Program-made: the position numbers and the translations under genes
Origin: Minisyncoccota bacterium
GTDB lineage: Bacteria; Patescibacteriota; Minisyncoccia; Phycocordibacterales; BOKC01
Direction: 5' to 3'
NCBI GenBank assembly: GCA_030583745.1
Contig: CP129473.1
Span: 442,783-506,782, forward strand
Length of the DNA: 64,000 bases
Part shown: positions 57,145-58,235 of the stretch, in pieces
Layout of the letters: every line of letters starts with the position of its first letter
Position numbering within the stretch: the stretch's first letter is position 1
Notes under the pieces: generated by a model
Seen by the model: only the letters and a program-made list of their open reading frames with translations
Told to the model about the DNA's origin: nothing
The model's database searches: none

Positions 57145-57768
57145 CTAGGCACTCGGGTCGCTAGTCAAAATTTGGACTGCTGTAGCCCAAGCCTCGTCCG
57201 GAGTCTCAAAGACTGGATATCCGAGCTTCTCTGCTTCATCCTTGTAATGAGGCCGCTCCCCGTTGAAGAATGCGTCAGCTTCGAGCTTTTGCAGTTCTTC
57301 CGTCGCACCCCAACGTGGCTCTTTCTTGTTTCTTTCAAAAGTTTCTTCAAAAGATCGTCCAATTATCGCGATTCCAGGAATATGTAAATCTCTATGTGCT
57401 AAGTGCGGAAGAATATTCACTCCTTCGAAAATCACAGGTCTATCCTCGTCAGCGTATTTGGCAAGCCTCACAAGAACCCCTGGCCAGAAACCTTCCGACT
57501 GCTTTACAAGGTTTGCCCACTGTTCCTCGTGAGTAGTGGTCGTGTAATAAGTATGTTCGTCTTGATCTAAATAAAAATTTACCCATTTCTTATATCTTTC
57601 ATCTTTGGTCAACTCTTCTCTAAAGTCATCAATTGAAACACAAATGCCACCTACTTTTTCAGCAAGTTTTTTAGCTAGGTAAGATTTCCCCGCTGTTGGT
57701 ATTCCAGTTATAAAAATTTTTTTCTTATCCATAATTCGAATCCCTTCGGGGTTTTTATGTTTTATCAC
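57145..57768 (-). CDS. P-loop NTPase / kinase-family protein
   Basis: Walker A IFITGIPTAGKSYLAKKL; co-oriented with the GIY-YIG gene, 7 nt downstream of it. Confidence 0.5.
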   Translation of the reverse strand: MIKHKNPEGIRIMDKKKIFITGIPTAGKSYLAKKLAEKVGGICVSIDDFREELTKDERYKKWVNFYLDQDEHTYYTTTTHEEQWANLVKQSEGFWPGVLVRLAKYADEDRPVIFEGVNILPHLAHRDLHIPGIAIIGRSFEETFERNKKEPRWGATEELQKLEADAFFNGERPHYKDEAEKLGYPVFETPDEAWATAVQILTSDPSA

Positions 57769-57775
57769 TTTTGGG

Positions 57776-58006
57776 TTAAAAGTGTTTTTTCAGAAAAGCT
57801 CGACCTGAGCCAGATTTTAAATACTTCTCAAATTCAAATGCTTTGTATTTATCTGATGTGGCGAAATAAAATTCTAAACTTACCGGCAAGCGATTCTCTG
57901 TTGCTGGAACGTGACCCTTTGTGTGTCTCTCTAATCTTTCCTCAATATTGTCTGTGCAACCGACGTAAAAACCATCTTTGCATTTTAGACTATATACGTA
58001 GTACAT
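57776..58006 (-). CDS. GIY-YIG nuclease family protein (small, standalone)
   Basis: MYYVYSLKCKDGFYVGCTDNIEERLERHTKG....EKYLKSGSGRAFLKKHF. Confidence 0.8.
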   Translation of the reverse strand: MYYVYSLKCKDGFYVGCTDNIEERLERHTKGHVPATENRLPVSLEFYFATSDKYKAFEFEKYLKSGSGRAFLKKHF

Positions 58007-58026
58007 AATTATGATTGGCGAAGGTC

Positions 58027-58148
58027 GCCTTCGCAAACCCACTGGCGGACTTCGTCACGCCGTAGGTTCGCTTCGGCGAACCGAATGTTGCCTTCGCAAA
58101 CCCACTGGCGGACTTCGTCACGCCGTAGGTTCGCTTCGGCGAACCGAA
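58027..58148 (-). repeat. Two tandem copies of a 59-nt unit (period 63) abutting the 3' end of tRNA-Ser; each contains a GGTTCGC-TTCG-GCGAACC hairpin
   Basis: gccttcgcaaacccactggcggacttcgtcacgccgtaggttcgcttcggcgaaccgaa x2, with a single difference in the spacer. Confidence 0.8.
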
Positions 58149-58150
58149 GG

Positions 58151-58235
58151 CGGAGGAGGTGGGATTCGAACCCACGATGCCTTTCGACATGGCGGTTTTC
58201 AAGACCGCTGGAATAAACCACTATCCGACTCCTCC
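58151..58235 (-). tRNA. tRNA-Ser (TGA), long variable arm
   Basis: Reverse complement is GGAGGAGTCGGATAGTGG...GCGGTCTTGAAAACCGC...GTGGGTTCGAATCCCACCTCCTCCG. Confidence 0.85.

Follow-up and report, generated by a model that had tools for sequence, protein, structure and literature searches.

This analysis concerns a small cassette that directly follows a tRNA-Ser(TGA) gene in a 64,000-nucleotide stretch of contig CP129473.1 from a Minisyncoccota bacterium (the whole stretch is referred to here as the window). The cassette consists of a structured module of about 65 nt, present here in two tandem copies, and a gene for a small GIY-YIG nuclease. One hairpin of the module, designated H2, is written in the acceptor-end sequence of the adjoining tRNA and is rewritten behind each different tRNA. 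The module is most likely an RNA element of the tRNA trailer.

The locus and its tandem repeat

A first-pass annotation of the window had reported a tRNA-Ser(TGA) gene, tandem 59-nt units with a period of 63, and downstream open reading frames (ORFs) for a GIY-YIG protein and a P-loop protein, all in one orientation. These points hold up, since ARAGORN and Rfam both call the tRNA, the units are present in two copies with 0 mismatches for which Tandem Repeats Finder (TRF) also gives a period of 63, and all four features are on the minus strand (Table 1). Residue G73 of the tRNA is at 58151, and the CC at 58150-58149 is common to, or provided by, the module.

Table 1. Features of the locus in window coordinates; R1 is the covariance model of the module
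Feature	Position	Strand	Basis
tRNA-Ser(TGA)	58149..58235	-	ARAGORN; Rfam tRNA, 55.9 bits
Module copy 1: 59-nt unit (58090-58148) plus 4-nt AACA	58086..58148	-	exact repeat; R1, 84.5 bits at 58085-58156
Module copy 2: identical 59-nt unit (58027-58085) plus GACC	58023..58085	-	R1, 66.8 bits at 58022-58084
Hairpin H1, GGUUCGC-CGAA-GCGAACC	58128..58145 (copy 1); 58065-58082 (copy 2)	-	read from sequence
Hairpin H2, GGCG-U-GAC GAA GUCCGCC, then A58106	58107..58124 (copy 1); 58044-58061 (copy 2)	-	read from sequence
Start of a third, truncated unit (UUCGCC) and 10-nt spacer preceding the ATG	58007..58022	-	TRF, 2.1 copies over 58019-58150
GIY-YIG nuclease gene, 76 aa, single-domain UPF0213/YhbQ type, without its own promoter	57776..58006	-	Pfam PF01541
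P-loop kinase-like gene, a neighbour outside the conserved cassette	57145..57732	-	weak Pfam AAA_18/AAA_33 matches

The 59-nt unit occurs exactly twice in the window, none of 100 shuffled sequences gave a match to it, and the pair is the strongest tandem repeat that TRF finds there (score 250). The elements of copy 1 follow one another in the order UUCG, segment a, GAA, segment a', UAC, H2, segment a'', GAA and tail. GC content in the repeat region is about 60%, compared with about 38% for the genome, and its folding relative to shuffles gives a z-score of -6.8 for the tRNA strand, compared with -3.9 for the opposite one. The UUCG hairpin loop described in the first-pass annotation is the antisense reading, as the loop on the strand of the tRNA and the genes is CGAA (C-GAA-G).

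A CRISPR (clustered regularly interspaced short palindromic repeats) array had been dismissed from the outset, and rightly so, since the two units stand head to tail only 4 nt apart and there are no unique spacers of about 25-40 nt. Dispersed repeats of the repetitive extragenic palindrome (REP) or miniature inverted-repeat transposable element (MITE) type can also be set aside, because only two units are present in 64 kb and nearly all matches elsewhere lie 3' of tRNAs. Compared with loci in other genomes, the repeat pair is a local duplication of the conserved module. A locus with a single module (L001) ends like the truncated third unit of the window (...GGCGACCUUCGCUACC), its module starting at CC|UUCG and ending in ...GGCGACC|UUCGC. 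Slippage or unequal exchange between CC|UUCG direct repeats flanking one module could have produced the two copies, as an event of this kind would give the order unit, AACA, unit, GACC, UUCGCC. Given that the units agree at 59 of 59 positions, the duplication was presumably recent. Tandem repetition is not the defining trait that it had been taken for, since the majority of loci contain a single module; arrays of two or more tandem units recur independently in L036, L056, L031, L122 and L133.

Occurrence, tRNA matching and folding of the module

A scan of one genome per species identified close relatives of the GIY-YIG protein in at least 534 genomes, and the module, for which the first-pass annotation had advised a search in relatives, is conserved behind tRNAs. 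Of the 80 loci that were fetched, 64 have a tRNA in the same orientation whose end lies 64-350 nt before the GIY-YIG start codon; these tRNAs comprise 55 tRNA-Ser (all four anticodons), 7 tRNA-Trp, 1 tRNA-Asp and 1 tRNA with the anticodon tca. Of the other loci, the majority either run into the end of a contig or carry an inserted island at the junction. Carriers of the module belong to the Patescibacteria, or candidate phyla radiation (CPR), and to some Bacteroidota, the latter accounting for 4 loci that include one from the cultured Niastella yeongjuensis (L094). Every junction reads ...CCG|CC-UUCG, with the module starting directly after the tRNA discriminator base, whereas tRNA-Ser genes without a module end in ...CCG|CA or CT, which argues that CC-UUCG is part of the module. 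The GIY-YIG relatives lie in unrelated gene neighbourhoods, and nearest-neighbour GIY-YIG proteins have a common tRNA anticodon in 11 of 64 cases versus 13.3 +/- 3.7 expected by chance; the tree of the cassette is unlinked to the tRNA-Ser isoacceptor.

About 70% of modules have a promoterless 76-77-aa UPF0213-type GIY-YIG gene within 0-200 nt downstream, and among modules found by DNA motif alone 13 are followed by such a gene and 5 are not. Orphan modules that lack the nuclease are intact (L150, L210, L208 and L207; 72-90 bits). A metagenome scan with a degenerate H2 pattern returned mostly chance matches in GC-rich contigs, together with about 22 low-GC contigs that hold real modules. A phage origin found no backing, as none of 50,697 phage records matched and IMG/VR yielded nothing beyond a 17-residue fragment. 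Model R1 was built on an alignment (A1) of 33 'simple' modules and, when run with filters off, recognizes only the two units as module copies in the window; its matches in 90 + 19 other loci are, with few exceptions, found directly 3' of either a tRNA or the displaced CCGCC junction of one. A weak R1 match at 38107-38148 on the plus strand (23.8 bits, rough E 0.003; CTCCGCCGAAGC...GCGAAGGCGAG) falls in apparent coding sequence and is probably due to chance. Rfam 15, searched with the window and 32 loci at gathering and permissive E-values, matched only the tRNA and holds no family for the module. Sub-threshold matches to sX4, Plastid-psbl-rps4 and Tymo_tRNA-like cover the tRNA part, and the sX4 match (29 bits in L063) was discarded, as it aligns through the tRNA-Ser-like part and not the module.

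In the window, the 3' strand of H2 is the tRNA 3' end UCCGCC and the 5' strand is its complement. This relation was followed through 78 distinct tRNA-module junctions. H2 has the form GGCG(N)GA...TCCG at 62 of 64 tRNA-Ser junctions ending in TCCGCC and the form GGCG(N)GG...CCCG at all 8 junctions ending in CCCGCC (the 7 tRNA-Trp and the tca tRNA), while the single tRNA-Asp ending in ACCGCC is followed by GGCGGU...ACCG and the single tRNA-Ser ending in TCCGTC by GACG...TCCG. No cross-matches between H2 and tRNA were found among the junctions compared. Each Trp-linked module subtype has a Ser-linked twin, which indicates that the change in H2 occurred several times. Where islands separate the module from its tRNA (L132, L184, L211, L117 and L207), H2 stays of the Ser type. 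The first-pass annotation had held that the repeats contain no tRNA 3' sequence. That does not hold, since the 3' strand of H2 in each unit reads TCCGCC(A) and so repeats the six bases at the end of the tRNA. H2 reproduces tRNA positions 70-73 followed by CC, and it changes in step with the identity of the tRNA.

The tRNA with anticodon TCA (L069:2822-2894) is 73 nt long, is labelled SeC (selenocysteine) by ARAGORN, ends in GGCCCGCC and is followed by a Trp-type module and a GIY-YIG gene. It may be the UGA-reading tRNA of a lineage with a recoded genetic code. In L002:755-3890 (also L003-L011), a large serine recombinase is encoded on an island of about 3 kb that lies exactly between the ...CCGCC of a tRNA-Ser(gct) and the UUCG of the module; the right end of the island reads ...AAAATACACCGCC. 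Similar element ends occur in L035, L050, L207, L064, L071, L012, L132 and L184; as several of these abut the tRNA-module boundary, the boundary is an integration hot spot.

Islands integrated at this junction, together with 15-16-nt direct repeats of tRNA 3' ends in L220 and L222, might be taken to mean that the tRNA-end copy in H2 is the attR leftover of an integrase insertion (att, attachment site) and that the hairpins are incidental. The copy is only 6-7 nt long, however, its complement is always present and co-varies with it, and most loci have no integrase nearby. In 'simple' modules, moreover, the copy is nested between co-varying segments of the module instead of standing at an element boundary, so that neither an att duplication nor a target-site duplication accounts for it there. 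The nested, co-varying architecture thus largely refutes the notion of an att scar, which seems very improbable.

The module can adopt a rod fold in which segment a pairs with the tail, a' pairs with a'' beyond a 3x3 GNA/GAA internal loop, and H2 forms the tip. In A1 the rod is 91.4% paired with 106 double-change cells, none of 500 shuffles was as good, and sliding the partners by 1-3 columns left only 33-39% paired; the H2 helix is 98.3% paired. Helix H1, the pairing of a with a', cannot coexist with the rod, and across the 33 loci 91.9% of it is paired, with compensatory changes. In an independent alignment (A5) of 13 metagenome modules that stood outside model building, the rod is 93.5% and H1 92.3% paired. 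A further helix, P0, joins the tRNA 3' end to the 5' strand of H2 and is 98.5% paired, with co-variation at two positions. As far as covariation tells, there are two mutually exclusive helix sets, both with compensatory changes. In state Y the tRNA is intact and the module is a rod capped by H2, and in state X segment a pairs with a', and positions 70-75 at the 3' end of the adjoining tRNA are engaged by the 5' strand of H2. Because G-U pairs exceed A-C pairs by 39 to 11 on the tRNA strand, the structure can be assigned to that strand. A model of three independent hairpins (H1, H2 and H3) was rejected, with H3 only 73% paired, as was pairing of CGCCUUCG in the tRNA end with CGAAGGCG in the tail, since tail column 68 co-varies with column 19 and not with the invariant C8. 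In 'extended' modules, the hairpin formed by a and the tail is short and capped, and H2 is found at a greater distance downstream. These modules, including those of Bacteroidota, retain the a:a' helix beside H2, with 5.76 of 7 pairs formed versus 4.19 +/- 0.15 when partners are shuffled between loci.

The most invariant bases of the module, CCUUCG and CUWCGGCG, face each other in an internal loop of fold X, as might be expected of a new self-cleaving ribozyme or of a dedicated RNase substrate that is cut at CC|UUCG, and possibly after H2, to yield a tRNA 3' end and a near-leaderless nuclease mRNA. About one third of 'extended' modules have their ATG 0-3 nt after ...CCGC(C)UU, which echoes the CCGCC|UU of the tRNA junction. 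This possibility is nevertheless a slim one, as no Rfam ribozyme matches at E-values as permissive as 10, no catalytic core is recognizable, and H2 can lie anywhere from 0 to about 200 nt before the ATG.

The nuclease and the role of the cassette

The GIY-YIG domain proposed in the first-pass annotation is real (PF01541, 45.8 bits versus a cut-off of 22.6, E 7.6e-12), but the gene starts at the ATG at 58006 (MYYVYSLK...) and not at the upstream GTG. The protein matches 1zg2 (UPF0213) in the PDB with E 5.3e-6 and 1ywl with E 0.054, and has 2648 database homologues, most of them 76-77 aa long and the best 80-89% identical. Across 28 sequences, residues Y3/Y5, Y14-x-G16, R24, H28 and E60 show little or no variation, and the tail EKYLKSGSGRAF is invariant. 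A score above the Pfam threshold, the catalytic residues and similarity to solved UPF0213 proteins place the protein among the UPF0213/YhbQ-like single-domain GIY-YIG proteins. It resembles these (1zg2 BH0048 and 1ywl EF2693) in domain, size class and catalytic motif pattern, whereas the clade of the window differs from them in the invariant tail and in being encoded almost always directly behind a tRNA and module. Full-text literature searches found no description of a link between UPF0213/YhbQ-type GIY-YIG genes and tRNA genes, and we know of no linkage of YhbQ-type genes to a tRNA plus module. The protein thus forms a new clade of a known family, and the RNA module with its tRNA-matched hairpin is, to our knowledge, undescribed.

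The whole 76-aa protein is one catalytic domain, and no DNA-binding domain was found in it. With a median dN/dS (ratio of nonsynonymous to synonymous substitution rates) of 0.097 and a dS of about 1.8, the nuclease is, on codon comparison, under strong purifying selection. The linkers between tRNA and ORF can be GC-rich and as short as 64-77 nt, and no terminator was found between the tRNA and the GIY-YIG ORF. An internal promoter was rejected, since the sole promoter-like match (58036-58008) has a -10 hexamer that ends 1 nt before the ATG. No conserved sequence was found past the GIY-YIG stop codon, and PADLOC gave no match.

Tandem structured repeats directly upstream of a nuclease gene, as in the window, call to mind a type III toxin-antitoxin pair in which the upstream repeat RNA would inhibit the downstream nuclease, and polymorphic toxin systems include GIY-YIG domains among their toxins (PMC3482391). 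At most loci, however, the module is single, no terminator separates repeats from gene, no ToxN/AbiQ-like protein or PADLOC match is present, and the H2-tRNA match would be left unexplained; a pair of this type is hardly to be expected.

The suggestion that the repeats and nuclease belong to a small tRNA-associated unit is borne out, as the unit is conserved and variably present. Empty sites, which the first-pass annotation had proposed to look for, were found in two close relatives, where the matching tRNA and kinase genes occur without the cassette. One (L225, kinase 88% identical) consists of tRNA-Ser(TGA), 45 nt and the kinase gene, and the other (L219) is syntenic with the window in the order PilM-RuvX-tRNA-Ser(TGA)-X-kinase, where X is a tRNA-end relic plus a 166-aa ORF. 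These loci indicate that the cassette was inserted or deleted between tRNA and kinase. The relic in L219 (...GAATCTCTCCTCCTCCGCC) resembles the 3' end of the window's tRNA-Ser.

Such presence or absence at a syntenic locus would be expected of a selfish mobile cassette acting at the DNA level, in which a homing-type GIY-YIG enzyme would attack the 3' ends of tRNA genes that end in ...CCGCC and the module would serve it for recognition, for recombination or as a guide. Because the nuclease lacks a DNA-binding domain, its specificity would have to come from the hairpin, as folded single-stranded DNA (ssDNA), as a cruciform, or as a guide with H2 strands that match the target. Consistent with mobility are the unrelated neighbourhoods and lack of correlation with isoacceptors, the Ser twins of the Trp subtypes, which imply at least four or five independent retargetings that were each accompanied by a matching change in H2, the recurrent tandem amplification (window, L036, L056, L031, L122 and L133), and the use of the junction as a hot spot by other integrating elements such as the serine-recombinase island of L002. 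There is also a precedent in SegB of phage T4, a free-standing GIY-YIG homing endonuclease located in a tRNA gene cluster (PMC2330249). The cassette resembles SegB in having a small GIY-YIG gene beside tRNA genes that is present or absent between relatives, as is typical of Seg-type homing endonucleases. It differs in that the protein has 76 aa and no extra DNA-binding domain, is chromosomal in CPR bacteria and Bacteroidota rather than encoded by phages, is under strong purifying selection, and is separated from the tRNA by a conserved structured element. Homing genes typically decay, whereas dN/dS is 0.1 here, dS is saturated and no pseudogenes occur in the loci inspected. There is no 3' boundary or second repeat past the stop codon, intact modules occur without nuclease, and no copies were found in phage collections. 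The excess of G-U over A-C pairs fits RNA or one DNA strand but not duplex recognition, and the 6-7-nt match alone is too short for specificity. On balance, a selfish cassette seems unlikely.

In a related scheme, H2, in the form of RNA transcribed from the tRNA promoter or of folded ssDNA, would be a 6-7-nt guide, its strands identical and complementary to the end of a tRNA gene, that steers the 76-aa nuclease to the 3' ends of tRNA genes for homing or defence. A change of one H2 base pair would retarget it from Ser to Trp or Asp, a switch that seems to have taken place more than once. Target matches of TnpB and IscB systems are about 16 nt. The cassette is like TnpB/IscB with omega RNA, the guide-RNA homing nucleases of transposons, in that a nuclease gene stands beside a structured non-coding element which partly matches the flanking target (PMC10690162). 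It differs in protein fold, in that the 6-7-nt match of the module is base-paired inside a hairpin, and in that no transposase or element ends were found. The resemblance would be one of logic only. A guide of this kind appears quite unlikely.

We favour, with a probability of roughly 0.55, the interpretation that the module is a cis-acting RNA of the tRNA trailer, a switch or processing element, which is accompanied by a nuclease cassette. Co-transcription of the structured modules with the tRNA had been proposed in the first-pass annotation, and it is almost certain given that the modules have no room for a promoter of their own and that their structure is on the tRNA strand. With fair confidence, then, the tRNA, module and nuclease mRNA would form one transcript from the tRNA promoter. 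During transcription, H1 would form first, and the 5' strand of H2 would then pair with the GCC tail of the tRNA and beyond; in predicted transcript prefixes, the GCC:GGC helix stacks on the acceptor stem. Closure of H2 and the rod would follow, freeing the tRNA end and enclosing the segment beside the start codon. The rod (state Y) would be the stable, closed state that hides this segment, and the alternative fold (state X) would engage the tRNA 3' end, so that the module could link the way in which the tRNA 3' end folds or is processed to how the nuclease mRNA is set free and, to a limited extent, translated. The switching detail is tentative and is proposed with less assurance than the interpretation as a whole.

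Several observations weigh against this interpretation. The tail and the segments a, a' and a'' are related to one another, so that some of the evidence for two states could stem from a duplicated hairpin rather than from selection for both folds, although H3, which a duplicated-hairpin model requires, is the poorly paired helix noted above (73%). The rod tail lies beside the start codon only in 'simple' modules, whereas the ATG of 'extended' modules is adjoined by H2 itself at 0-25 nt; a single translational mechanism is therefore not obvious. Sequestration of a Shine-Dalgarno sequence was rejected as a general mechanism for a similar reason, as the GAAGG tail adjoins the ATG only in 'simple' modules. 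The intact orphan modules indicate that the module does not need the nuclease, which does fit a tRNA-related role. A folded tRNA would not readily yield acceptor pairs 70-72 to the H2 strand, and predicted co-transcriptional folds form only the GCC:GGC part, transiently. Co-transcription, processing sites and switching are in addition all deduced from sequence.

Pairing of an RNA with a tRNA 3' end is familiar from the T-box, and the 3' external transcribed spacer (3'ETS) is a functional RNA derived from a tRNA trailer. The module resembles these in its predicted pairing with the tRNA 3' end and its position in the trailer. It lacks T-box or specifier features and an Rfam match, and it differs from both in that its partner is the tRNA on the same transcript, including acceptor positions 70-72, and in its location downstream of the tRNA and upstream of a nuclease gene. 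Two candidate RNAs of Prevotella, HMP2_6893 and HMP2_905, were described as 'near uvrC' and overlap on opposite strands, with no tRNA link or function assigned (PMC8040213). Overlap of this sort is what a near-palindromic rod would give, and Prevotella belongs to the Bacteroidota. These unannotated RNAs are at most a possible precedent, and a motif search gave no match. The genes beside them carry the name uvrC from Prokka, a label that, we suspect, small GIY-YIG ORFs receive as well.

If a trailer RNA is the correct interpretation, tRNA-Ser and tRNA-Trp genes in hundreds of species, whose genomes rank with the smallest of all bacteria known, are physically fused to an RNA element that had escaped description. 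The match between H2 and tRNA would be a rare, clean signature of a functional interaction with the tRNA 3' end in cis, on RNA or DNA, and would offer a handle on the function of the widespread UPF0213/YhbQ-type mini-nucleases. It would also bear on the maturation of tRNA-mRNA co-transcripts in CPR bacteria and on tRNA 3' ends as insertion hot spots, and the cultured carrier N. yeongjuensis DSM 17621 would allow these readings to be tested.

The kinase gene and other features of the window

The P-loop gene had been placed 7 nt past the GIY-YIG gene, but its likely start is the ATG at 57732 (MDKKKIFITG; homologues MNKKRLFITG), 43 nt after the GIY-YIG stop codon. There are 476 kinase homologues in Parcubacteria. 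An AlphaFold2 model of the protein (predicted local distance difference test score 93.8) has adenylate, UMP-CMP and shikimate kinases as its best PDB matches, with template modelling scores of 0.5-0.6, which points to a generic nucleoside monophosphate (NMP) kinase fold and not to polynucleotide kinases in particular, a family that the first-pass annotation had wished to see checked. The match to a PHROG 'polynucleotide kinase' is weak (E 6e-5) and covers the P-loop only.

Both genes lie downstream of one tRNA in the window, and in close relatives the kinase gene comes right after tRNA-Ser or tRNA-Trp, an arrangement that could suggest an RNA end-healing pair of nuclease and kinase acting on tRNA, as had been proposed. 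In the loci compared, however, the two never occur together: a kinase homologue is absent from all 110 GIY-YIG loci, and all 15 kinase loci lack a GIY-YIG gene. More distant kinase homologues lie in ordinary operons, and the predicted NMP kinase fold is generic. A conserved nuclease-kinase pair is therefore refuted, and the kinase, excluded as a cassette member, is an unrelated downstream gene.

The kinase gene is located just downstream of a tRNA-Ser (tga, gga or cga) or tRNA-Trp gene in 8 of 8 close relatives (L219-L226, 74-88% identity), and the homologues in ordinary operons are 63-65% identical. In L220 and L222, the direct repeats of the tRNA 3' end are exact and surround inserts of about 120-160 nt that start with the T-arm-like sequence GAGGATTCGAA. 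Just past the kinase stop codon, at 57070-57135 on the minus strand, the window reads CTAAAATACCCTTAGGGTACCTCACC..., which is like the promoter-plus-hairpin leader that precedes CCGCC|UUCG in L012, L064 and L071; no gene follows this stretch on the minus strand. A recurring gene-start cassette is present at 57733-57775 on the minus strand and also downstream of the GIY-YIG gene in L027, L022 and L001. It consists, in order, of TGNTAAAAT (an extended -10 box), an ACCC-loop-GGG hairpin, GATTCGAAYT and the ATG. In L022 and L001 a mini-hairpin, GAAGCUUUAGCGAAG, is inserted in its loop, and the same mini-hairpin caps 'extended' modules.

Gene neighbours in the window include DUF5652, RuvX and PilM, and these, together with the source names of the homologues, assign the window to the Patescibacteria/Parcubacteria. 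Tandem runs of the heptamer TTAGGGT, which resemble telomere repeats, occur at 10739-10780, 16652-16665, 18381-18405, 31788-31822 and 34995-35041, and 16 two-unit matches (at most 3 mismatches) are present in the window compared with 6.2 +/- 2.2 in shuffles. The 23S rRNA fragment at 1-2011 on the minus strand has 2011 nt for model positions 1-1774, and its extra length of about 240 nt is possibly an insertion.

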